Source: a virus (lineage: Duplodnaviria; Heunggongvirae; Uroviricota; Caudoviricetes). Taken from it: a stretch of 27,180 nt of DNA. The position numbers were made by a program, and so were the translations under genes. The DNA lies in IMG/VR virus record IMGVR_UViG_2740892115_000003. One strand, given 5' to 3'. Below are positions 6,001 to 26,874 of this stretch, piece by piece (within the stretch, counting starts at the first letter, position 1; every line of letters starts with the position of its first letter). Under the pieces are notes generated by a model. It was not told where the DNA came from. It did no database searches and saw only the letters and a list, made by a program, of their open reading frames with translations.

Positions 6001-8802
6001 ATGACGGCAGAGTACATCAGGGACTGGCAACAACCGCGCCACGCGGTGGGGCGTGAAGGAACGGGGATCCCCGCTCCTGAATCCGCGCTTTCCTCCTGGC
6101 TGGGCGCCTACCGGGTAGAGAACGAGCGCCGCCAGGAAATGGCTGATGCGGCGTTCTCCGCCACGCCGCTGGGCAACCTGATTAATAAAAGCTTGGACGC
6201 ACAGGAAAAACAGGACAAAACCATCACACTGGCAGGAGACGCCAGAAAACAGGCACGCGGCGCGGTGGATGAAGCCATGGCCTCGCTGCGCCTGCTGCCG
6301 TCCTATCTGCGCGATCCGCTTATTCGCCACCTCTCCTTCCTGCGCAAAAAACAGGAAGCCGATCGCCGGAAAGGCAAAAAGAGCTGGCAGGCGGAACGCT
6401 ATGCACGCGGAACCCTGCGCAAAATATTCGAACGTCTGGACCGCACCGATCACCGCTGGCTGACACCGGGTTATCGCTCCCTTGCTGGACGCGAACGCCT
6501 GGACGATTTGCTTTACCTGCCGCAGCTCAACAAACACCAGATACAGACGCTGGCCACCATGACGGCGGCGATGTTCAGCAGCACCTTCGAAAAACTCTGC
6601 GATGGCTTTGGCGCGACTGATGGCGAACTGACCATGGATGTAACGCTGAAGGCGTATCAGATGCTGGCCCGCATGGCGTTACACCTGCACGCCATGCCTC
6701 CACATTATGACTCACTGACAACAGACAAAGACCGGAGGAACGAACCGGACACAGAGCTGCTGCCGGGCGCAATCCTTCGCCTGACCTGTGCGGAATGGTG
6801 GAAACGCAAACTATGGCTGTTACGTTGCGAGTGGAGAGAAGAACAACTCCGCGCCGCCTGTCTGGTTTCCAGAAAAACATCGCCCTATCTGAGCCAGGAC
6901 GCGTTAAGCGAGTTTCGCGCACAGCGCGAGAAAACACGCGATTTCCTGAAAAGTTTCATGCTGGAAAACGAAGACGGGTTCACGATTGATCTCGAGACAG
7001 TGTATTACGCGGGAGTAAGTAACCCGGTTCACCGTAAGGCAGAAATGATGGCCACCATGAAGGGACTGGAACTTCTGGCCGAAGCCCGTGGCGACAGAGC
7101 GGTGTTTCTGACTGTCACCTGCCCGTCAAAATACCACGCAACAACGGAGAACGGTCATCCGAACCCCAAATGGAACGGGGCCACCATGCGCGACTCCAGC
7201 GATTACCTGGTTAACACGTTTTTTGCGGCGGTCCGCAAAAAACTGAACCGCGACGGCCTGCGCTGGTATGGCATCCGCACGGTGGAGCCTCACCATGACG
7301 GCACCGTGCACTGGCATATGATGGTCTTTGCTCATCCGGAAGAAATCGACAGCATCGTGGCCATCACCCGCGATATTGCCATTCAGGAAGACCGCCACGA
7401 GCTGGGCAATGATATTACTCCGCGCTTTAAAGTGGAGTATGTCGACGGCTCAAAAGGCACACCAACCAGCTATATCGCGACCTACATCGGGAAAAACCTG
7501 GACAGCCGCGCCGTGGATGGCATCGACCCGAAAACGGGCAAACCACGCGTTGACCACGAAACCGGAAAATCAATGGCCGAGAGCGTGGAGCGCGCCATCG
7601 GTTGGGCACGCCTTCACCGGGTCCGCCAGTTCCAGTTCTTTGGCATCCCCTCCCGTCAGGTGTGGCGTGAACTCCGCCGCCTTGCCAGCCAGATGGCACG
7701 CAACCCGGAAGGCCCGCAACGGCTGAAGGATGACGCAATGGATGCGGTACTCGCTGCCGCTGATGCCGGATGTTTTGCCACCTACATAGAGAAACAGGGC
7801 GGCGTACTTGTTCCACGCAAAGACTACCTGATTCGCACCGCCTACGACCTCGCCGATGAGCTGAACGATTACGGCGAACAGAGTGTACAGATTTACGGGA
7901 TCTGGTCACCACTCATCGGGGAATCCTCCCGTGTGTGCACGCACCCGGATAACTGGAAGCTGGTAAGACGTAAACCGGAACAGGAAGGCAGCGCCCACGA
8001 AAATGGTTTTGACCTTCAGGGCGGCCCTGCCGCCCCTTGGACTCGTGGCAATAACTGTCCCCGTGTACAGGAAACGGACAACAACGGGACAGAACAGCCG
8101 GAAGAACGGCCAGCACCGTGGCCGCAGCTTCCTGACGGCGTTGACGTGAACGAATGGATGCGCTCACTGAAACGGCACGAACGCCGGGCGCTGATGCATT
8201 CGCTGCGTGACAAACAGGCAAAAAACAGCAGTGATGAAATGCAGAGCTGGACACAGAGCCGCAAACAGCAGCGGCCTTTGCCTGATAACCACGAATTACT
8301 CGCTAAAGAATGGCGGGAGTCTGCCGAATCTCTCGGCCTGCATATCGGTGAACAGCAGATGCAGCACCTGTTACGGGGCGGCAGTCTGTACGTTGACGGC
8401 AGCATCATTGCACCGCAGGGATTTGAAATTGTACGCAAACCGGATACCCGACCGGACAGCCGGATCACGCAGCTCTGGCAGCGCCTGAGCCGTAACCACG
8501 GCGTAAGCAGTACGGAGATCCGCCATAACCCGGTCGCCAGCTATCTGGAACAGCTGAGGGCATCAGACCCCGAAGCCGCCGCACGCCTGGCATCCACACT
8601 TCAGCAAGACCAGAACACCATGAAAACACCCGTTACCGTGCTTTCTGACATGCTGCGCGCCATCCGCGACGCAGAGCACGCACAGAGAATCAGTGAAACC
8701 ACTGAACGCGCCCGCCGCAAAGCAGACCTGCTGCGGGGTGGCCTGACCAGTGGAAACAAAAAACAGACAGAAACGGGATTTCAGAATCCCGTAAACGATT
8801 AA
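6001..8802 (+). CDS. A: Rolling-circle replication initiator endonuclease (P2 gpA family) with a long C-terminal extension
   Basis: It has an HUH motif (GTVHWHMMVF) and a paired-tyrosine motif (SYIATYIGKN). It aligns broadly with remembered P2 gpA (LTVTCPSKYH and VEPHHDGT.HWHMM). Its position is syntenic. Confidence 0.95.
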   Translation: MTAEYIRDWQQPRHAVGREGTGIPAPESALSSWLGAYRVENERRQEMADAAFSATPLGNLINKSLDAQEKQDKTITLAGDARKQARGAVDEAMASLRLLPSYLRDPLIRHLSFLRKKQEADRRKGKKSWQAERYARGTLRKIFERLDRTDHRWLTPGYRSLAGRERLDDLLYLPQLNKHQIQTLATMTAAMFSSTFEKLCDGFGATDGELTMDVTLKAYQMLARMALHLHAMPPHYDSLTTDKDRRNEPDTELLPGAILRLTCAEWWKRKLWLLRCEWREEQLRAACLVSRKTSPYLSQDALSEFRAQREKTRDFLKSFMLENEDGFTIDLETVYYAGVSNPVHRKAEMMATMKGLELLAEARGDRAVFLTVTCPSKYHATTENGHPNPKWNGATMRDSSDYLVNTFFAAVRKKLNRDGLRWYGIRTVEPHHDGTVHWHMMVFAHPEEIDSIVAITRDIAIQEDRHELGNDITPRFKVEYVDGSKGTPTSYIATYIGKNLDSRAVDGIDPKTGKPRVDHETGKSMAESVERAIGWARLHRVRQFQFFGIPSRQVWRELRRLASQMARNPEGPQRLKDDAMDAVLAAADAGCFATYIEKQGGVLVPRKDYLIRTAYDLADELNDYGEQSVQIYGIWSPLIGESSRVCTHPDNWKLVRRKPEQEGSAHENGFDLQGGPAAPWTRGNNCPRVQETDNNGTEQPEERPAPWPQLPDGVDVNEWMRSLKRHERRALMHSLRDKQAKNSSDEMQSWTQSRKQQRPLPDNHELLAKEWRESAESLGLHIGEQQMQHLLRGGSLYVDGSIIAPQGFEIVRKPDTRPDSRITQLWQRLSRNHGVSSTEIRHNPVASYLEQLRASDPEAAARLASTLQQDQNTMKTPVTVLSDMLRAIRDAEHAQRISETTERARRKADLLRGGLTSGNKKQTETGFQNPVND

Positions 8803-8826
8803 TTAATCAACATAAGGAAAAGCGAC

Positions 8827-9786
8827 ATGAAAATTTGTATCGATGACGGCTCCACCAACATCAAGCTGGCATGGACTGAGAACGGCGAACGCCGCAACGC
8901 CATCAGCCCGAACAGCTTCAAGTCGGAATGGTCTGCGCCGTTCGGTGGCACGCAGCCCGCGAACTACATGCTTGATGGCGTGCGCTATGGTTTTGATCCG
9001 GTCAGCGATCGCTTTGTCCAGACGACTGACACGCAATACCAGTACAGCGATGTGAATGTCATTGCCATTCATCACGCGTTGGTCAAATCAGGCATCACGC
9101 CACAGGAGGTGGATGTGGTTGTCACCCTGCCACTGAGCGAGTATTTCGACACAAACGCACAGCCGGACATAGCCAACATCAACCGCAAAAAAGCGAACGT
9201 TATGCGCCCGGTGGAGTACCAGAACGGCGAAGCATTCACTATCCGTAACGTACGGGTTATGCCTGAATCCATTCCGGCTGGCTTTAAGGCACTGGCTGAC
9301 ATGAGTCCGTTTGAATCCCTGCTGATTGTGGATTTAGGCGGAACCACGCTGGATGTGGCAAAGGTTCAGGGACAACTGGCAGGTATCAGCCAGGTGTTTT
9401 GCGATCCACACGTAGGCGTTTCCCTGATGGCCGATGCCGTACTGTCGGTGATGGCCACTAACGGTATGCGTACCAGTCACCACATCGCCAATACCATTAT
9501 CGAACATCGCCATGATGAAGCCTGGCTGCGCCAGCACATCCACAATGACGCGCATTACGCCAGCCTGATGGCGGTTATTCGTGAAAAGGAAGAAACACTG
9601 AAACAACGCGTGATCCGCGCGCTGGCGGGTTTTTCGGGTTACGGGCGGGTGATGGTTGTCGGTGGAGGGGCGGAGATTGTGGCACCCGCTATCCGCGAAG
9701 CCTGCGGAGTTAATGCGACTTTCATCGCGGACGGGGTGCCACAGTTTGCTCTGGTTAATGGGCTGTACGCAATGGACAAGGAGTAA
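8827..9786 (+). CDS. parM: Actin-like plasmid segregation ATPase ParM/StbA
   Basis: It aligns along its full length with plasmid R1 ParM (from memory). Shared motifs are IDDGSTNIKL, ISPNSFKSEW, VMPESIPAGF, DLGGTTLDV and GGGAE. Confidence 0.93.
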   Translation: MKICIDDGSTNIKLAWTENGERRNAISPNSFKSEWSAPFGGTQPANYMLDGVRYGFDPVSDRFVQTTDTQYQYSDVNVIAIHHALVKSGITPQEVDVVVTLPLSEYFDTNAQPDIANINRKKANVMRPVEYQNGEAFTIRNVRVMPESIPAGFKALADMSPFESLLIVDLGGTTLDVAKVQGQLAGISQVFCDPHVGVSLMADAVLSVMATNGMRTSHHIANTIIEHRHDEAWLRQHIHNDAHYASLMAVIREKEETLKQRVIRALAGFSGYGRVMVVGGGAEIVAPAIREACGVNATFIADGVPQFALVNGLYAMDKE

Positions 9787-9790
9787 ACCA

Positions 9791-10102
9791 ATGACGACAC
9801 CAACCAGACGGATAAGTTTCTATCTGAAGCCTGCGGCCGTCAAGAACGAAAGCGAAGCATGCGCCTGGCTGGACAGCCTTACACCAGAAGCCCGCAAAAG
9901 CGGCCAACGCGTGGCTTTTCTGGCCGGGCTGGCACTACTGAAAATGAATCCGGCAGAGGCTTACCGACTGGCTGCATGGGCTGATGATGAGGCATTATCA
10001 GTGACACAAACCAGGACAGAACGCCCCGCGTCACAGCCAGTATCAGCCGCACAGATAACCAGTCAGATGGCCGGAAATATCCGGGCGTTATTTCCCGAAT
10101 AA
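9791..10102 (+). CDS. parR: ParR-like centromere-binding adaptor (RHH N-terminus)
   Basis: The ATG at 9791 follows AAGGAG. RRISFYLKP...LDSLTPEARKSGQRVAFLAGLALLKMNP parallels R1 ParR (RRTIAFKLNP...LDSIPQGERSRLNRAALTAGLALYRQDP, from memory). It sits immediately after parM. Confidence 0.8.
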   Translation: MTTPTRRISFYLKPAAVKNESEACAWLDSLTPEARKSGQRVAFLAGLALLKMNPAEAYRLAAWADDEALSVTQTRTERPASQPVSAAQITSQMAGNIRALFPE

Positions 10103-10107
10103 CACAA

Positions 10108-10137
10108 CATCAGGGCGCATCCGCCCTGATGACTTTA
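10108..10137 (+). terminator. Perfect 10-bp hairpin after parR (possible partial terminator)
   Basis: CATCAGGGCG, a CATC loop, then CGCCCTGATG (10108-10131). It is followed by ACTTTAA, which is only a weak U-tract. Confidence 0.5.
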
Positions 10138-10165
10138 ACCCGGGAGCATAAACAAGGGGGACACA

Positions 10166-10501
10166 ATGCAACACATTGACAGAGAAAAAGCGCAGCGACT
10201 GATTGAGCGGATGGAAGCGCTGGCGAAAGAAGAAAATGTCAACATCCAAAAAATAGCTGAATGTGGCCAGATAGTTCTTCGTCGTGAAAAAGACCTCAAA
10301 CAACTGATGTCTGGCGAAACCAGCAAAACATGGACTTCAGGCGAGAAGACGGTTTATTGCAGTTTCTGCAATAAATCCCAGTACGAAGTCACAAAGGTGA
10401 TTGCCGGACCGTCTGTTTACATCTGCAATGAGTGCGTGGATTTGTGCAATGAAATTATCAGGAAAGAAGTGACAGACCATGAAGAAAAAACGCATGAATG
10501 A
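10166..10501 (+). CDS. Small protein with a C-terminal ClpX-type C4 zinc-binding domain and no AAA+ module
   Basis: An AGGGGG ribosome-binding site lies upstream. [39 protein letters not shown] closely matches the E. coli ClpX N-domain ([39 protein letters not shown], from memory). The N-terminal ~60 aa are helical. Confidence 0.85.
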
Positions 10502-10667
10502 CGAATTTGACGGCTTTTAATTTTATCGGGGCGCACTGTCGCCCTGCATGGAGAAAAACAATAAAAAAGATGAATAACTGCTCATGTCAGACGCGCTGCG
10601 GGCAAGTCTGGCACCCTGCCCTGTTTCCGCAAAGGCTGTTGTCTTAACACGACAGAGTATGCCAGCA

Positions 10668-11075
10668 TTAAATATAATCTTCTTCGTAGTCGCTGATTAA
10701 TTCATTGCCATAATCAGACAGCAATTTCAAAGCAAAGGTAACTTCCTCAAGGGTAGCTATCCCCATTGCTGAAAACACCGTTAATTTAACCAGCAGCAGG
10801 GAGTTTGAAAGTTCGGAAGAGTTCATCATTAAAAATATTGATGCAGCCTGAAAAGCTGTGCGTTTATTCCCATCATGAAAGGCATGAGCCTTGGCTATAC
10901 CAATCAAATACATAGCAGCCAGAGCATGAATATCATCAACCCCTTCATAGTAGTGTAGTGTCCTGACGCGATTTAAAGCACCTTCAAGTAGCCCGTCATT
11001 GGCATTTCCGCTCTGGGGTAAAGTTTCAGCATGGATACGTTCTACTTGTTCTTTTGACAAAAACACTATGTCCAT
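10668..11075 (-). CDS. doc: Doc (death-on-curing) Fic-fold toxin
   Basis: It carries the Doc/Fic motif HAFHDGNKRTAF. It is 135 aa long, and its start overlaps the stop of the upstream antitoxin ORF. Confidence 0.92.
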   Translation of the reverse strand: MDIVFLSKEQVERIHAETLPQSGNANDGLLEGALNRVRTLHYYEGVDDIHALAAMYLIGIAKAHAFHDGNKRTAFQAASIFLMMNSSELSNSLLLVKLTVFSAMGIATLEEVTFALKLLSDYGNELISDYEEDYI

Positions 11076-11431
11076 CAGTTATCCTCAAGCTTTTTAATGA
11101 TATCCGCATGTTTTTCTCTTGTACGCTTCATTGCATCTTCAAAAGACAATCCTTTTTTTCTCTGTGCGACAAGAGCTGGATGACGTTTTTCCAGATCTCT
11201 CACTGCATTTATTAAGAGTGGTTGCTTCATTTTGTTTATTTGATCCCGCAGTTTTTTGGTTTTGCCAAGGACAGCCCGTATTTCAGGACTAAGATCAGAA
11301 CCAGCAAGAACAACATCCTTCCCTCCCTGCGCAGTGATAACGACACTGCCACCGGAAGAAAGGTAATCCAGAATTTCACTCAGGTTCTCACGAAATTCAT
11401 CATCAGTTACAGTTTTCATATTCATTTCCAT
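11075..11431 (-). CDS. Phd/YefM-type antitoxin (long form)
   Basis: The N-terminus TVTDDEFRENLSEILDYLSSGGSVVITAQGGKDVVL has a Phd/YefM-fold pattern. It is translationally coupled to doc. The start may be an internal ATG (11425 or 11419). Confidence 0.8.
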   Translation of the reverse strand: MEMNMKTVTDDEFRENLSEILDYLSSGGSVVITAQGGKDVVLAGSDLSPEIRAVLGKTKKLRDQINKMKQPLLINAVRDLEKRHPALVAQRKKGLSFEDAMKRTREKHADIIKKLEDN

Positions 11432-11505
11432 TATGCACGCCCATAACGTAAGTATAACGGCTTGTTGGGCAGTAATAACACCGCCATATTTTCATTTTAT
11501 ACACC

Positions 11506-11531
11506 GCACAATAGTGCACAAATTTGCACAA
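11506..11531. promoter_or_regulatory. Three 10-bp-phased GCACAA repeats (TTGTGC on the minus strand), a possible phd-doc promoter/operator
   Basis: GCACAA occurs at 11506, 11516 and 11526. On the minus strand the middle TTGTGC lies 16 nt from TAAAAT, giving a possible -35/-10 pair about 75-100 bp upstream of the antitoxin start. Confidence 0.35.
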
Positions 11532-11539
11532 TTTTTTTG

Positions 11540-11905
11540 AACAACTTTTTACCCTTCCGGCCCGCGTGGCGACTGGATCCGTCAGGGATCCGTGCGTGCA
11601 CAAAAAAACGCGTTTTTTCTGCGCGCAGGTGACGGGGGAACAGCCCGCGTTTCAGGGGGTAAATAGCATTCCCTGAACGATGTCGCAGAGATACAACAGA
11701 ATGGCTGTATTTCTCACGCTGAGCGTGAAAAATACGTGAGGGATTCTGATTTGATGGGGTGAAAGGTAAGGCCGTCAAAATCGCACTGAGGCGGCGAGAA
11801 CATGCAGTCAACGCGGTAGGATTGCGTAAGAGTCTGACCGTCGATGATGGCAATAAGCAGGAAAGCGTCGTGAAATTATCTGATTGATACAGGAGCTGGA
11901 GAGTC
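11540..11905. other. Non-coding region expected to contain cos (cohesive-end / terminase recognition site)
   Basis: In P2, cos lies just beyond the 3' end of Q, so synteny places it here. The region is rich in symmetry elements. These include GGATCC-N5-GGATCC (11574-11590), an A6-CGCG-T6 palindrome (11603-11618), the TTCAGGG/CCCTGAA hairpin (11651-11677), and CACGCTGAGCGTG. Two G-rich candidates loosely resemble the P2/186 cohesive end: GGTGACGGGGGAACAGC (near 11629) and GGCAATAAGCAGGAAAGCG (near 11850). I could not fix the exact site. Confidence 0.4.
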
Positions 11906-11929
11906 GGGGCATAAATTTTTTATGCCCCG
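11905..11929 (-). terminator. Strong hairpin just downstream of Q (possible end of the P-Q transcript)
   Basis: CGGGGCATAAA, a TTT loop, then TTTATGCCCCG gives an 11-bp stem. Neither strand has a clean U-tract after it. Confidence 0.35.
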
Positions 11930-11955
11930 GCGAAGCAGCAGACAAGCGAAGCGCG

Positions 11956-13002
11956 TCAGGATGTGGGCTGGGTGTCTAACAGTGCGTAAGGGTTAAAGCG
12001 GATCACCTCTTCGCCGAGCCAGTCATTGATGTGCTTCATGGCCTCCATGACGGGCATCAGCTCGTTAATTGCGTAAACCCGCGCGGCCTTCTCCACATCA
12101 CCAAACGCACTTTTTTCGCCTGGCATCGCCCCCATCAGTTGCGGCGGAACGCGGTGCGCAGCCAGCACATCATCACGGGATGCCGCCTTAACATTCATGA
12201 ACTCATCCTTTGCAGTGATCTGCTGGAACGGCAAAATTTGCACACCTTCTTTGCCCCCGTTGGGCGCATGGATGAGCACGTTTTTAAACGCACCACCGCC
12301 ACGCGCGCCCTGTAACGTTTCTTTCAGGGAGTCCATGCTTTCGCGGTTTACCTGCGCTGCGCCGATGTAGATGATACACCCGGCGTGGGATCCGTTGTCG
12401 TAATACAGTTTTCTGAACATGTCCGCCGAATGAGACAGGCTGGCCGAGAGTAATGCGCCAAGATATTCCGGCATGCCGTAGATTTCCTGGTTAATATCCG
12501 GATTCATCAGGTGGCACACTTTGCCAGGGCGAAACTGGAACGCGTCCTTGCCATCCTGCACATACCACCATGATTCAAGATCGCTTCCGCGTCGCATGTA
12601 TTTCGCCAGGGCGTGCCGTAATTTAAGCGGTTCGCCGAGCATATTGCTTCGAAGCTCAAGGAATGCGTTACCGAACACAAACCAGTCCAGCGCCAGCGCC
12701 GAGAAATCCTGCCGGGAAAGCAGCGGGTGCGGAATATAGCAGCCGAGCAATACATTGCGCTTAAAGTAAAGCGCAGACTGATGCCAGGACGTTTGCCGGG
12801 CAGCTCTTGCCAGACCGTACCAGTCCACCGGGGTTTCATACCACCGCCCGTTATCAGCACAGTACATATTATCCAGCAGGTCATGCCCGGTCAGGCGATA
12901 AGGACCATCAAATGTGAATGCACTGAGCGACGATTCTTTCCTGAGCGCATCAGCGAGATCAATGCGTGAACTCATGCGCACTTTTTTATTTTTTCTGCTC
13001 AT
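11956..13002 (-). CDS. Q: Portal protein (P2 gpQ family)
   Basis: It is 348 aa and syntenic, with an ATGA overlap to P. It matches the remembered gpQ family in size and arrangement. Confidence 0.95.
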   Translation of the reverse strand: MSRKNKKVRMSSRIDLADALRKESSLSAFTFDGPYRLTGHDLLDNMYCADNGRWYETPVDWYGLARAARQTSWHQSALYFKRNVLLGCYIPHPLLSRQDFSALALDWFVFGNAFLELRSNMLGEPLKLRHALAKYMRRGSDLESWWYVQDGKDAFQFRPGKVCHLMNPDINQEIYGMPEYLGALLSASLSHSADMFRKLYYDNGSHAGCIIYIGAAQVNRESMDSLKETLQGARGGGAFKNVLIHAPNGGKEGVQILPFQQITAKDEFMNVKAASRDDVLAAHRVPPQLMGAMPGEKSAFGDVEKAARVYAINELMPVMEAMKHINDWLGEEVIRFNPYALLDTQPTS

Positions 13003-19583: not shown

Positions 19584-19725
19584 CCCACCCACATGGGGAA
19601 ACCTCGGAATATGGGGCGACCGCCTTCTGGATGCACTGGAAACCTGTAACGCGGATAAACGGGCCATTGCTGAACTGGATAAGAGAATAGCCGAACTGAC
19701 ACACCAGACGGGAGTAACACAATGA
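19444..19725 (+). CDS. o-spanin (Rz1/LysC-like outer-membrane lipoprotein), overlapping the i-spanin in the +1 frame
   Basis: MNAPTLCLTLVLLTGC carries a lipobox (LLTG|C). The mature part is proline-rich. It starts inside the i-spanin and extends beyond it, as with P2 lysB/lysC. Confidence 0.7.
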   Translation: MNAPTLCLTLVLLTGCAGTQNAPGPAPSVRLIPQTLTMPVTPPPFPDPPTWGNLGIWGDRLLDALETCNADKRAIAELDKRIAELTHQTGVTQ

Positions 19726-21602
19726 CCAGTAAGAACTTTGCACTGATTACAGCCATGACACAGGCTGAACTGACTCAAAAGGTGAATGAACATCTTGCGA
19801 AAGGGTGGCATCTTCAGGGGGAGACGCGGGTTGCCTACGAACCCGGCACCCCGTGGTATCTAATGCAGGCAATGGTGGCCGATGGCACTACAGACATCTC
19901 ACCTGATTCCCCCCAGCACGGCAGCGTGCCGGAGTGGTATTACGTGGTGGTACTTGCTGGTCAATCCAATGCCATGTCATATGGTGATGGAATGCCGCTG
20001 CCGGATTCTTACGATGCGCCCCACCCACGCATTAAGCAACTGGCCCGTCGCAACACAGTGACTCCCGGTGGTAAAGCATGCGCATTTAACGACATCATTC
20101 CGGCAGACCACTGCCTGCATGATGTTCAGGATATGAGCGCACTGAATCATCCGAAGGCAGACCTGAGCAAAGGGCAGTACGGCTGTGTCGGCCAGGGCTT
20201 ACATATTGCCAAAAAACTGCTTCCGTATATCCCGAATAACGCGGGGATCCTGCTGGTACCATGCTGTCGTGGTGGTTCGGCATTCACCCAGGGCGCGGAG
20301 GGGACATTCAGTGCGGACACGGGGGCCAGCCAGGATTCGGCGCGCTGGGGTGCGGGTAAGCCGTTATATCAGGACCTGATCGCACGCACCAAAGCGGCAT
20401 TACAGAAGAACCCGAAAAATGTGTTGCTGGCGGTGTGCTGGATGCAGGGCGAATTTGACATGAGCGCTGCCACCTACGCACAGCAACCGGACCTGTTCAC
20501 GGCCATGCTGAAGCAGTTCCGTACTGACCTTTCCGGATTTAACGCGCAGTGCCATGGCGGCAGTGCTGCAGTTGTACCGTGGATTTGTGGCGACACGACG
20601 TATTACTGGAAAAACACATACGGCACACAGTATGACTCCGTCTACGGCGCGTACAAAAACAGGGAGAGCGACAACGTTTTCTTTGTGCCGTTCATGACCG
20701 ACGGTAACGGCAACAACACGCCCACCAACTTACCGGCAGAAGACCCGGATATTGCTGATGCAGGTTATTACGGCGCGCAATCCCGTAGTAATGGTAATTG
20801 GGTATCGTCAAATCGTCCGACACATTTCAGTTCATGGGCGCGCAGGGGCATTATTTCGGATCGCCTGGCAACCGCTATTCTGAACGCAGTTGGTCGAACC
20901 AGCGCCTTCATCAGCGGTACCGCACCGGAGATTAAACCCTCGCCCGGCGGCGACACGCCATCGGGGCCGTCTGATGGTGACACATCCGTTCGTACAGTCT
21001 CCCTGCTGCCGACAGCCGGAGAGGCTGCTGCGCAGGGCTGGACCATCACCGGCGGCAGTGTTGCGCTGGAAGATGGTGTGTTTAAGGTTACCAAGCAGAG
21101 CAATAAAACCTGGTCCCTGATGCATCCGGTGGATGACGCAGTCTCCCTGCTGACACGGGGTGGCAGACTGAGCTGTAAGTTTCGACTGTCAGGCGCACTG
21201 ACCAACAACCAGTTCGGTCTGGGAATTTATCTGTATACCGATGTAGCGTTACCTGACGTCGTGGCGATGACCGGGACTGGTAACCCGTTCCTGATGTCGT
21301 TCTTCACCCAGACCACAGACGGCAAACTGAATCTGATGCATCACAAGAAAGCCGGAAACACAAAGTTGGGCGAGTTCGGGAATTACAGTAACGACTGGCA
21401 GACGCTGGAGCTGGTGTTCACCGCCGGCAGTGCCACGGTTACTCCGAAACTGAATGGAGTGGCTGGCCCGGCATTCCAGGTCATAAAAGACAGTCTGACA
21501 CTGGGGCTGAATGCGCTGACGTTAACTGATATCACTAAAAATGCCGCGTACGGCGTCGATATCGGTAGCCTGGTGCTGGAAATCAATAATCCCGCAGCAT
21601 AA
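19722..21602 (+). CDS. DUF1737 / sialate O-acetylesterase (SASA, SGNH-like) / C-terminal lectin-like protein (NanS-p-like)
   Basis: The N-terminus (ALITAMTQAELTQKVNEHLAKGWHLQGE) is DUF1737-like. The esterase has a GQSN nucleophile motif (VVLAGQSNAMSYGDG), then WMQGEFD and PTHFS. The C-terminal ~200 aa are beta-rich and LamG/ConA-like. Its ATGA start overlaps the o-spanin stop. Confidence 0.85.
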   Translation: MTSKNFALITAMTQAELTQKVNEHLAKGWHLQGETRVAYEPGTPWYLMQAMVADGTTDISPDSPQHGSVPEWYYVVVLAGQSNAMSYGDGMPLPDSYDAPHPRIKQLARRNTVTPGGKACAFNDIIPADHCLHDVQDMSALNHPKADLSKGQYGCVGQGLHIAKKLLPYIPNNAGILLVPCCRGGSAFTQGAEGTFSADTGASQDSARWGAGKPLYQDLIARTKAALQKNPKNVLLAVCWMQGEFDMSAATYAQQPDLFTAMLKQFRTDLSGFNAQCHGGSAAVVPWICGDTTYYWKNTYGTQYDSVYGAYKNRESDNVFFVPFMTDGNGNNTPTNLPAEDPDIADAGYYGAQSRSNGNWVSSNRPTHFSSWARRGIISDRLATAILNAVGRTSAFISGTAPEIKPSPGGDTPSGPSDGDTSVRTVSLLPTAGEAAAQGWTITGGSVALEDGVFKVTKQSNKTWSLMHPVDDAVSLLTRGGRLSCKFRLSGALTNNQFGLGIYLYTDVALPDVVAMTGTGNPFLMSFFTQTTDGKLNLMHHKKAGNTKLGEFGNYSNDWQTLELVFTAGSATVTPKLNGVAGPAFQVIKDSLTLGLNALTLTDITKNAAYGVDIGSLVLEINNPAA

Positions 21603-25147: not shown

Positions 25148-26874
25148 CAGTGAAATACTACGCCATTCTGACTAATCAGGGCGCGGCACGACTGGCTAAC
25201 GCGACGATGCTCGGCAGTAAGCTGAATCTGACGCGAATGGCCGTTGGTGATGCAAATGGTGTGTTACCAACACCAGACCCTGCACAAACAAAACTGATTA
25301 ACCAGAAACGCATTGCACCGCTGAATCTTCTGAGTGTTGACCCTAACAATCAGAGCCAGATTATTGCGGAGCAAATCATCCCTGAAAGCGAGGGAGGATT
25401 CTGGATCCGTGAGATTGGTCTTTATGATGATAAAGGTGTACTCATTGCGGTGGCAAACTGCCCGGAAACGTACAAACCGCAGTTGCAGGAAGGCAGTGGA
25501 CGCACCCAGACTATCCGCATGATTCTGGTTGTCACGAACACCGAAGCCATCACGCTGAAAATCGACCCGTCTGTGGTTCTGGCAACCCGCAAATATGTGG
25601 ATGATAAAATATCAGAGCACGAGCAGTCACGACGTCACCCGGACGCCTCGCTGACCGCAAAAGGCTTTGTTCAACTTAGCAGCGCCACCAACAGCACCTC
25701 TGAAACGCTGGCCGCAACACCGAAAGCGGTTAAGGCTGCATATGACCTGGCTAACGGGAAATATACCGCTCAGGATGCGACTACGGCACGAAAAGGCCTT
25801 GTTCAACTCAGTAGCGCCACAAACAGCACGTCTGAAACGCTGGCCGCAACACCGAAAGCGGTTAAGGCTGCATATGACCTGGCTAACGGGAAATATACCG
25901 CTCAGGATGCGACTGCGGCACGAAAAGGCCTTGTTCAACTCAGTAGCGCCACAAACAGCACGTCTGAAACGCTGGCAGCGACACCAAAAGCTGTTAAGGC
26001 GGTAATGGATGAAACGAACAAGAAAGCGCCCTTAAATAGTCCTGCACTGACCGGAACGCCAACAACACCAACTGCGCGACAGGGAACGAATAATACCCAA
26101 ATCGCAAGCACGGCTTTCGTTATGGCTGCGATTGCCGCCCTTGTAGATTCGTCACCTGATGCACTGAACACGCTGAACGAGCTGGCTGCGGCGCTGGGCA
26201 ACGACCCGAATTTTGCGACCACCATAACTAACGCGCTTGCGGGTAAGCAACCGAAGGATGCCACCCTGACGGCGCTGGCGGAGCTTGCTACATCAGCAGA
26301 TAAACTCCCATATTTTAAAGGGGCAGATCGTGCCGCGTTAACTGCACTGACAAGTGTTGGACGCGCCATTCTTGGTAAGACCAGTATTCAGAGCGTTCTT
26401 GATTACCTTGGTTTGGGGGAAGGCTCTGCATTGCCTGTTGGTGTACCGGTTCCATGGCCCACCGCCACACCGCCAGCAGGCTGGTTACAGTGCAACGGAG
26501 CTACGTTCACCAAAGAACAATATCCTGTTCTGGCCAGAGTCTACCCGACCCTCCGTCTTCCCGATTTACGCGGTGAGTTTATCCGTGGATGGGACGGTGG
26601 TCGCAAGGTTGATACCGGGCGTGCGCTACTTTCATTTCAGGAAGGGACTATCGTATCCGGTTTTGATGATAATGATACCGGAGATATCAGTTCGCTCGGC
26701 TCTACACAATACGGATTTGGTGACGCTTTAACCTCTAATCAACTGGGGGTCATAAATGGCAAAAAGTGGATATTTGATGCATCCTCTAAAGGTGCACGAA
26801 GACATGACTGGTGGGCTTATGTATCAGCTCGCCCCCGCAATATCGCATTTAACTATATCGTGAGGGCGGCGTGA
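25144..26874 (+). CDS. H: Tail fibre protein H (P2-type N-terminal and shaft region, tail-collar-type C-terminal receptor domain)
   Basis: The N-terminal two-thirds are nearly colinear with remembered P2 gpH (GFW.RE.GLYDD.G.LIAVAN, EHEQSRRHPDASLTAKGF, NTQIA.TAFVMAAIAALVDSSPDALNTLNELAAALGNDPNF). After YLGL the sequence switches to a collar-type domain (PVPWPTATPPAGWLQCNGATF...LPDLRGEFIRGWD). Confidence 0.92.
   Translation: MTVKYYAILTNQGAARLANATMLGSKLNLTRMAVGDANGVLPTPDPAQTKLINQKRIAPLNLLSVDPNNQSQIIAEQIIPESEGGFWIREIGLYDDKGVLIAVANCPETYKPQLQEGSGRTQTIRMILVVTNTEAITLKIDPSVVLATRKYVDDKISEHEQSRRHPDASLTAKGFVQLSSATNSTSETLAATPKAVKAAYDLANGKYTAQDATTARKGLVQLSSATNSTSETLAATPKAVKAAYDLANGKYTAQDATAARKGLVQLSSATNSTSETLAATPKAVKAVMDETNKKAPLNSPALTGTPTTPTARQGTNNTQIASTAFVMAAIAALVDSSPDALNTLNELAAALGNDPNFATTITNALAGKQPKDATLTALAELATSADKLPYFKGADRAALTALTSVGRAILGKTSIQSVLDYLGLGEGSALPVGVPVPWPTATPPAGWLQCNGATFTKEQYPVLARVYPTLRLPDLRGEFIRGWDGGRKVDTGRALLSFQEGTIVSGFDDNDTGDISSLGSTQYGFGDALTSNQLGVINGKKWIFDASSKGARRHDWWAYVSARPRNIAFNYIVRAA
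25660..25998 (+). repeat. In-frame 132-bp tandem repeat (about 2.6 copies) inside H
   Basis: Units start at 25660, 25792 and 25924. Each encodes KG(F/L)VQLSSATNSTSETLAATPKAVKAAYDLANGKYTAQDAT.AR. Units 1 and 2 differ at only a few positions. Confidence 0.95.
26396..26421. promoter_or_regulatory. Candidate Din-family (Hin/Gin/Cin/Pin) DNA-invertase crossover site at the H constant/variable junction
   Basis: TTCTTGATTACC-TT-GGTTTGGGGGAA matches hixL (TTCTTGAAAACCAAGGTTTTTGATAA, from memory) at 18 of 26 positions. The ACC-NN-GGTTT core is conserved. It encodes the YLGLGE point where similarity to P2 gpH ends. Confidence 0.45.

Follow-up and report, generated by a model that had tools for sequence, protein, structure and literature searches.

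An R1-type ParM/ParR pair in the conserved replication region of P88-like, P2-type prophages

An R1-type parMR pair lies directly downstream of gene A

We analyzed the partition-like genes carried by a 27,180-nucleotide (nt) stretch of DNA from a tailed virus (Caudoviricetes; IMG/VR record IMGVR_UViG_2740892115_000003), hereafter called the window. The parM gene (positions 8827 to 9786, + strand) encodes an actin-like segregation ATPase of 319 residues that matches the Pfam families StbA_N (E = 3.6e-82) and ParM C-terminal domain (E = 1.3e-68). The protein was aligned with the crystallized ParM of plasmid R1 over residues 2 to 316 (PDB 1mwk; E = 9e-93). It is 47% identical to R100 ParM over 318 residues, with the DDGSTNIK, DLGGTTLD, and GGGAE motifs kept. 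The parR gene (9791 to 10102, + strand) starts 4 nt past the parM stop codon and encodes an adaptor protein of 103 residues, which belongs to the Plasmid_stab_B family of Pfam (PF10784; E = 1.6e-24). ParR shares 34% identity with StbB/ParR of R100 over its N-terminal 56 residues, where FLAGLAL aligns against LTAGLAL. In PHROG, ParM falls into family 691, “partition protein,” and ParR into family 2515, which is likewise listed as a partition family. The original prediction, made by reading the window without database searches, had claimed that ParM aligns along its full length with R1 ParM and that the next open reading frame (ORF) is a ParR with a LAGLAL helix; both claims proved correct. By sequence, the pair is a genuine R1-type ParM/ParR.

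In ParR, a variable linker joins the invariant N-terminal segment MTTPTRRISFYLKP to a C-terminal tail that is conserved as NI(R/Q)A(L/F)FPE. The tail is invariant in 14 diverse ParR alleles. Across 52 alleles, residues 1 to 17 (MTTPTRRISFYLKPAAV) and a C-terminal NIxxLFPE are invariant, whereas the linker varies. The tail aligns with the C termini of plasmid ParR proteins, including that of R100 (...KKNAMKLIN), and we take this segment to be the one that binds ParM in the R1 system. A phmmer search of the PDB with ParR gave no match. A tblastn search for plasmid relatives of the window ParR returned phage-derived copies only, and thus no plasmid centromere could be transferred by homology. The parMR unit ends with a 10-bp G+C-rich inverted repeat located just past the parR stop codon (10108 to 10131), which is terminator-like on the - strand. 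The span first assigned to the pair, 8827 to 10137, also includes this hairpin, parR itself stopping at 10102.

Gene A, which codes for a P2-type rolling-circle replication endonuclease of 933 residues (6001 to 8802, + strand; Pfam Phage_GPA, E = 1.7e-130), is located directly upstream of parM in the same orientation. The window region is a 100% match to a chromosomal prophage adjoining pdxB in Escherichia coli isolate 30345_1#186 (NZ_OZ039818.1). According to the annotation of the whole prophage, its gene set comprises an integrase, a C-like repressor, Cox, a GPA-type A, and P2-type morphogenesis genes, in agreement with the original description of an integrative P2-like phage with int, C, and cox. 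Among named phages, Escherichia phage P88 (genus Xuanwuvirus, family Peduoviridae) is the closest. The GPA domain of the A protein spans only residues 179 to 503. Hafnia encodes the long C-terminal part as a separate ORF of 167 residues, and the shorter A proteins of Plesiomonas and Enterobacter (785 to 789 residues) lack it.

parMR belongs to the phage backbone

The parMR pair was found by megablast in 1307 of 5426 complete E. coli genomes (24%), including O157:H7 and ST131 prophages. Its presence is already published and annotated and is not new. Rousset et al. 2022 (PMC9122126) reported a “putative plasmid partitioning system” among the contents of the gpA-gpQ hotspot in about one-fourth of E. 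coli P2-like phages, a proportion that matches the 24% of genomes found here.

In P2, this hotspot, which extends from A to the cos-proximal portal gene, harbors tin, old, and other anti-phage cargo (PMC9122126). The original prediction had placed parMR in the tin/old slot, as part of a cargo hotspot. The interval from A to cos is indeed the same, but the cargo status was not borne out. In P88, in a circular genome described below, and in five E. coli prophages, the common layout is A, 76 nt, parM, parR, variable genes, a conserved block, cos, and Q. The pair was present in every P88-like locus examined, while the genes downstream of it change. The variable genes start past the parR stop codon or within parR, and many E. 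coli prophages lose homology at position 10102. In addition, the A..parM-parR..Q (portal) order is kept in prophages of Plesiomonas (63% ParM identity), Hafnia (62%), Serratia (58%), and Enterobacter (54%). Dickeya and Mangrovibacter have relatives as well, in conjugative or plasmid contexts. Finally, a search of both proteins against the PADLOC defense models gave no match. Thus, unlike the P2 hotspot cargo, parMR is an invariant part of its lineage with synteny that extends across genera, and it represents conserved backbone next to A.

Among phage records, ParM proteins of this similarity occur only in P88-like phages (95 to 99.7% amino acid identity) and in the phage-plasmid D6 (48%). Plasmid ParM proteins reach at most 53% identity with that of the window, which indicates that the phage ParM clade is old rather than a recent capture. 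A scan of genome contigs for more divergent lineages gave only relatives at 98 to 99%, and an alignment-based scan of IMG/VR was saturated by relatives at 99 to 100%. Queries with the Hafnia and Plesiomonas sequences yielded one further locus, of the NRK type defined below. A 226-kb contig labeled “Vagococcus sp.” (NZ_JBQPOM010000071.1) encodes a ParM that shares 98% identity with that of E. coli and is most likely enterobacterial contamination.

Both genes are under purifying selection

We determined the ratios of nonsynonymous to synonymous substitutions (dN/dS) by pairwise Nei-Gojobori comparisons of eight copies, from E. coli, Escherichia albertii, and Salmonella. The values were 0.01 to 0.14 for parM and 0.23 to 0.35 for parR. 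Both genes are intact and under purifying selection. Taken together with the presence of the pair in 24% of E. coli genomes and with its synteny over five genera, this argues that parMR must do something for the phage.

These observations bear on the idea that parMR is a decaying relic, i.e., a functionless remnant of an ancestral plasmid-phage fusion, with the upstream deletion of the window (see below) marking the loss of function. The window is indeed devoid of the distal repeat and of the normal A-parM spacer, and the prophage annotation contains other pseudogenes. Moreover, a few of the 52 ParR sequences are truncated, with one 63-residue out-of-frame product and truncations of 79, 25, and 46 residues. 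However, the parM ORF is intact in all eight copies compared, with the low dN/dS given above, and synteny extends to genera in which ParM identity is 54 to 63%. In the window itself, both ORFs are complete and the catalytic motifs of ParM are intact. We therefore consider a relic very unlikely.

ParR is much more polymorphic than ParM. In about 90 P88-like loci, we counted 52 distinct ParR alleles that are 50 to 97% identical to one another, compared with 93 to 100% for ParM. The synonymous divergence (dS) of parR reached 0.70 between two prophages whose adjacent parM genes have a dS of 0.06. Such diversity, next to a documented anti-phage hotspot (PMC9122126), might be expected if the prophage ParR/ParM proteins disturbed the partition of incoming related plasmids or phages, or if they acted as a defense or competition factor. 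Exclusion of other replicons was one of three readings put forward in the original prediction, and we found no support for it. The N terminus of ParR, its predicted DNA-binding part, is invariant, the polymorphism is restricted to the linker, and the dN/dS values show no sign of positive selection. Neither protein has a match in PADLOC, and the pair is backbone rather than variable cargo. As described below, the phage region shows no relation to R1-type centromeres in a matrix scan, and expression of parMR in the lysogen is doubtful. A role in exclusion thus appears highly improbable.

The parR gene is a recombination mosaic. Homology between E. coli prophages breaks at about position 9845, about 9936, or 10102, so the left edge of hotspot exchange often lies inside parR.

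The short A-parM gap is a rare deletion allele

In the window, 24 nt separate the A stop codon (8802) from the parM ATG (8827). This distance had been reported correctly in the original prediction, but it does not reflect the typical arrangement, as the usual gap in P88 and other relatives is 76 nt. In these relatives, two direct repeats of about 42 nt are found 73 nt apart, the first of which overlaps the last A codons. By alignments with P88 and four other loci, we mapped the junction of a 73-nt deletion between the two repeats to positions 8764 to 8779. According to the alignments, the two repeats recombined in the window, with loss of one unit and the spacer. The deletion took the distal of two palindromes described below together with the normal end of A, and it fused A to a new 8-codon tail. 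Of 1216 E. coli records, 3 matched the junction at 99% or more and 1171 at 90 to 95% only. Both repeat units were retained by nearly all of 87 P88-like loci sampled separately.

The prophage contains no iteron array

We searched for an iteron array using repeat and tandem-repeat (TRF) scans, as well as a k-mer cluster scan of the whole 39-kb prophage (8-mers with 1 mismatch allowed and 10-mers with 2, at a minimum of 4 copies per 150 bp). No array was detected. The k-mer scan yielded about 50 background clusters, none of them array-like. As positive controls, the same methods recovered dense 10- to 11-bp arrays upstream of parM in two IncF plasmids, and the R100 parC array is visible by eye.

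The sense strand upstream of the phage parM is A-rich and by eye looks like R1-type iterons. When scanned with a weight matrix derived from the ten iterons of R100, the region upstream of R100 parM had 22 matches and that upstream of the window parM had 1, and no stretch of the prophage came near plasmid density. With 1 to 5 matrix matches upstream of phage parM genes against 22 in R100, R1-like iterons at this position were rejected. The original observation that no parC iteron array can be recognized is therefore valid for the whole prophage, beyond the stretches first inspected, and this systematic search for short direct repeats revealed no canonical iteron centromere. An Rfam search of positions 8400 to 12000 gave no match.

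Three tandem 10-bp units, GCACAATAGT GCACAAATTT GCACAATTTT, are found at positions 11507 to 11536. The conserved block on the right-hand side of the cargo genes opens with these units, about 280 bp ahead of the presumed cos region. This 3 x 10-bp GCACAA array was rejected as a centromere, since it could not be linked to ParR: it is conserved in E. coli P88-like phages, but the relatives from Plesiomonas, Hafnia, Serratia, and Enterobacter have parMR without it.

A palindrome upstream of parM is a candidate ParR-binding site

A palindrome, CGGGATTTCAGAATCCCG (GGG-N10-CCC), is located at positions 8774 to 8791, 52 nt upstream of parM, and we propose that it represents a remaining ParR site. CGGG-N10-CCC occurs only once in the window, at this position. 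The palindrome within each repeat of about 42 nt in typical relatives reads CGGGAT-N6-ATCCCG. Of this sequence, only GGG-N10-CCC is shared across genera, together with its position and a spacing of 72 to 73 nt between the two copies. Relative to parM, the distal and proximal palindromes are at -125 and -52 in E. coli, -131 and -59 in Plesiomonas, and -128 and -55 in Hafnia, and the sequence around them is not alignable between the three. Two or more GGG-N10-CCC motifs were found in 0.03 to 0.2% of shuffled 200-nt upstream regions, corresponding to a chance of 0.0003 to 0.002.

Serratia, Enterobacter, and one IMG/VR relative lack the motif upstream of parM and carry in its place a long inverted repeat, GGGAACGAwAyAGAAAAAT, about 33 nt, ATTTTTCTrTTTCGTTCCC. 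The type of the ParR N-terminal strand changes with the upstream element. It reads TRR(I/V)SFYL in the lineages with GGG-N10-CCC and NRKISFYL in the others, in which an inverted ATAGAAAAAT/ATTTTTCTAT pair replaces the palindromes, and it is NRKCSFYI in plasmids with T-rich iterons. The iterons of the NRKCSFYI plasmids are similar to this inverted pair. The core of the inverted repeat resembles the TTTTTCTATA iterons of an IncFII plasmid. Given the conserved position and spacing of the palindromes, their uniqueness, and their co-variation with the ParR strand type, the GGG-N10-CCC palindromes are a candidate ParR-binding site that may serve as a minimal centromere/operator.

Alternatively, the palindromes could be RNA or transcription elements, with ParR binding another sequence or binding with low specificity. 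They might be minus-strand terminators that insulate the early operon from leftward transcription of the hotspot, or hairpins involved in mRNA processing or stability. The link between the palindromes and ParR comes from sequence comparisons, and both E. coli copies have an 8-pair stem with a T-rich tail on the minus strand, as would be expected of terminators. However, Hafnia and Plesiomonas have kept GGG-N10-CCC with its position and spacing but not the T-tracts. As for mRNA hairpins, the 21 loci with the CCC-to-CCT variant could still form a G-U pair in the + strand RNA. Against them, stem positions 4 and 5 vary without compensation in the E. coli population, and the 3 to 4 G-C pairs conserved across genera are too weak to close a 10-nt loop. 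The lack of an Rfam match also argues against RNA elements. We regard this alternative as rather unlikely, although it deserves to be taken seriously.

The phage is a chromosomal prophage

Another of the three original readings was a phage-plasmid lifestyle in which the element persists as an episome. ParMR would then keep the phage as a low-copy plasmid, in a phage-plasmid or carrier state, a possibility on which Rousset et al. 2022 (PMC9122126) also speculated. Both proteins are bona fide homologues of plasmid partition proteins. In PLSDB, we found one complete circular P88-like genome of 34,461 bp deposited as an E. coli plasmid (NZ_CP148288.1, pZ1323PEC0009-2), which contains int, A, parMR, and all morphogenesis genes.

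Several observations argue against episomal maintenance. In complete E. coli genomes, parMR was found at 1453 chromosomal versus 2 plasmid places, and the prophage of the window is integrated beside pdxB, with an integrase gene. The single circular record could be an excised replicative form resulting from spontaneous induction. The remaining “plasmid” matches are records of 227 kb to 1.4 Mb or one linear, IS1-ridden fragment of 26.7 kb, the Shigella boydii “plasmid” NZ_CP049283.1, which was rejected as an episomal example for that reason. The rolling-circle A gene is the sole replication gene found, with no theta-type Rep or copy-control gene in the whole-prophage annotations, and no promoter that would drive parMR under repression was detected. 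Thus, neither extrachromosomal upkeep nor a plasmid-type initiator with copy control, the traits of P1-, N15-, SSU5-, or D6-like phage-plasmids, was found. With the 1453:2 ratio and one circular plasmid record, we consider the phage-plasmid reading weak and episomal maintenance improbable.

Expression and proposed role of parMR

A consensus-based scan detected neither a sigma-70-like promoter nor a + strand terminator between A and parM, both in the window and in P88. As no promoter of its own was found and the pair is oriented in the same direction as A, co-transcription from the early promoter is the simplest reading. Thus, parMR is probably expressed together with A as part of the early operon, once infection or induction has occurred, and would be silent in the lysogen. 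We also searched omics papers on enterohemorrhagic E. coli for expression of the CP-933T partition genes and found nothing.

In P2, the A protein drives rolling-circle replication, which generates the monomeric circles that are the packaging substrate. We propose that parMR is a functional type II DNA-positioning module, part of a replication region that is conserved in P2-type phages of the P88-like group (Xuanwuvirus) and in related phages, and we put the probability of this reading at roughly 45%. The genes would be transcribed with A from the early promoter, and the proteins would be made after infection or induction. ParR would bind to the upstream GGG-N10-CCC palindromes, two of which are present 73 bp apart in normal phages and one in the window. 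ParM filaments capped by ParR-DNA complexes would then push circular phage genomes apart. The proposed benefit would be more efficient replication or packaging, as for the AlpC/AlpA/alpS system of the CGP3 prophage. In the window, the rare deletion halves the centromere-like region, and the module may thus be weakened in this prophage.

Of the three readings first offered, positioning of replicating DNA by ParMR fits best, given that no promoter was found, that parMR and A have the same direction, and that CGP3 AlpAC provides a precedent. A more specific proposal is that a P2-type phage runs an R1-type actin machine on a two-palindrome centromere to organize its rolling-circle replication and packaging substrate, and not for plasmid inheritance. 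We hold this stronger version to be possible but doubtful.

A number of points weigh against a DNA-positioning module. The role proposed for parMR draws on sequence and precedent, and no paper that tests parMR function was found in the literature searched. The ribbon-helix-helix fold of ParR is putative, as the AlphaFold model of the monomer, built from 14 sequences, is of low confidence (pLDDT of 54.6). The GGG-N10-CCC motif was defined post hoc, after inspection of the sequences. Its co-variation with the ParR type is confounded by phylogeny, because the three motif-bearing lineages are each other's closest relatives. The motif is also not fully conserved among P88-like loci, since the proximal site reads GGG..CCT in about 21 of 87 and the distal one AGG..CCC in 3. 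Both E. coli palindromes also score as minus-strand intrinsic terminators. Two sites, or one here, are far below the number in any characterized type II centromere. Lastly, the promoter scan was crude, and a weak or ParR-regulated promoter could have escaped it.

Comparison with known systems

Plasmids R1 and R100 carry the ParMRC (parA/stb) system, in which parM precedes parR as it does here. The nucleotide-binding motifs of ParM are kept over a full-length identity of 47%, and the ParR proteins belong to the same Pfam family. An N-x-x-x-L-(F/I) tail aligns with the R100 C terminus. In contrast, the plasmid centromere consists of ten 11-bp iterons and contains a promoter, whereas the phages have at most two 16-bp palindromes, with one in the window, and no sigma-70-like site was found upstream of parM in the window or P88. 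Similarly, the plasmid system serves a low-copy theta replicon, unlike the integrating rolling-circle phage described here, which is chromosomal at 1453 of 1455 places rather than an autonomous low-copy replicon. We therefore file parMR as working like a type II system and not as a canonical ParMRC member, since it has neither an iteron centromere nor an autonomous replicon.

The AlpC/AlpA pair of the CGP3 prophage (Donovan et al. 2015, PMC4446434) provides the documented precedent for the proposed role. Those proteins bind repeats upstream of their operon and form filaments on induction, and their deletion causes a two-fold drop in phage DNA. As in the window, an actin-like protein and a DNA-binding adaptor are encoded by an integrated prophage. 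In CGP3, the repeats bound by the adaptor precede the operon, and the two proteins have been proposed to act on excised, replicating phage DNA (PMC4446434). The two systems also differ. In CGP3 the adaptor gene comes first, AlpC is a distant actin-like protein and not an R1-type ParM, and alpS has 24 short repeats versus two palindromes here. Furthermore, CGP3 is a large cryptic prophage of the Gram-positive bacterium Corynebacterium glutamicum and not a P2-type myovirus.

The StbA-type locus of the P1-like phage-plasmid D6 is the only other one in phage records with an R1-type ParM, at 48% identity. However, D6 is a 91-kb extrachromosomal phage-plasmid in which the locus has a classical partition role, and its ParM is no closer to that of the window than ordinary plasmid ParM proteins are.

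Type II partition is a textbook plasmid device, found here in an integrating phage. If parMR positions replicating circles, the idea developed for CGP3 AlpAC would be extended to the best-studied family of small temperate coliphages. It would add a cytoskeletal DNA-positioning step to the life of a small temperate phage. A two-palindrome centromere would be the smallest natural type II centromere known and would bear on the minimum number of ParR sites needed to cap a ParM filament. The question is directly testable, as P88 is inducible and genetically tractable. Conversely, if parMR does nothing measurable, the published suggestion of a plasmid life for these prophages should be dropped. What is new here is the backbone status of the pair, its synteny across genera, the selection measured on both genes, the identification of the 24-nt gap as a rare deletion, and the candidate binding site. 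The observations of the original prediction were thus confirmed, and its interpretation was partly supported.

Cargo genes and other features of the prophage

The variable hotspot cargo of the window, located outside the partition module, spans positions 10166 to 11431 and was identified by Pfam and NCBIfam matches. Different genes fill this position in P88, AR_0058, ECA64, O111, and one further locus. The first gene in the window (10166 to 10501, + strand) encodes a protein of 111 residues with a ClpX C4 zinc finger (Pfam, E = 7e-18). The protein has a helical N-terminal part and no AAA+ domain, and it is also present in P88. This zinc-finger-only protein could be a decoy for adaptor or substrate recognition by ClpX. 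The other two genes, on the - strand, encode a Doc (Fic/DOC) toxin (10668 to 11075) and a Phd/YefM antitoxin (11075 to 11431). Doc has weak PADLOC matches to candidate systems (PDC-S23).

Elsewhere in the window, a gene for a 626-residue DUF6645 protein (19722 to 21602, + strand) is inserted between the lysis and tail genes, at what looks like a second cargo site. A 132-bp tandem repeat with 2.6 copies, 95% matching, is found inside the tail-fiber gene (25659 to 26000). Beyond the window, near attR, the same prophage carries a PIN-domain gene and genes for a Hok/Gef toxin, Com, and a DNA methyltransferase. The gpD-like gene there looks truncated, and the prophage may thus not be fully functional.

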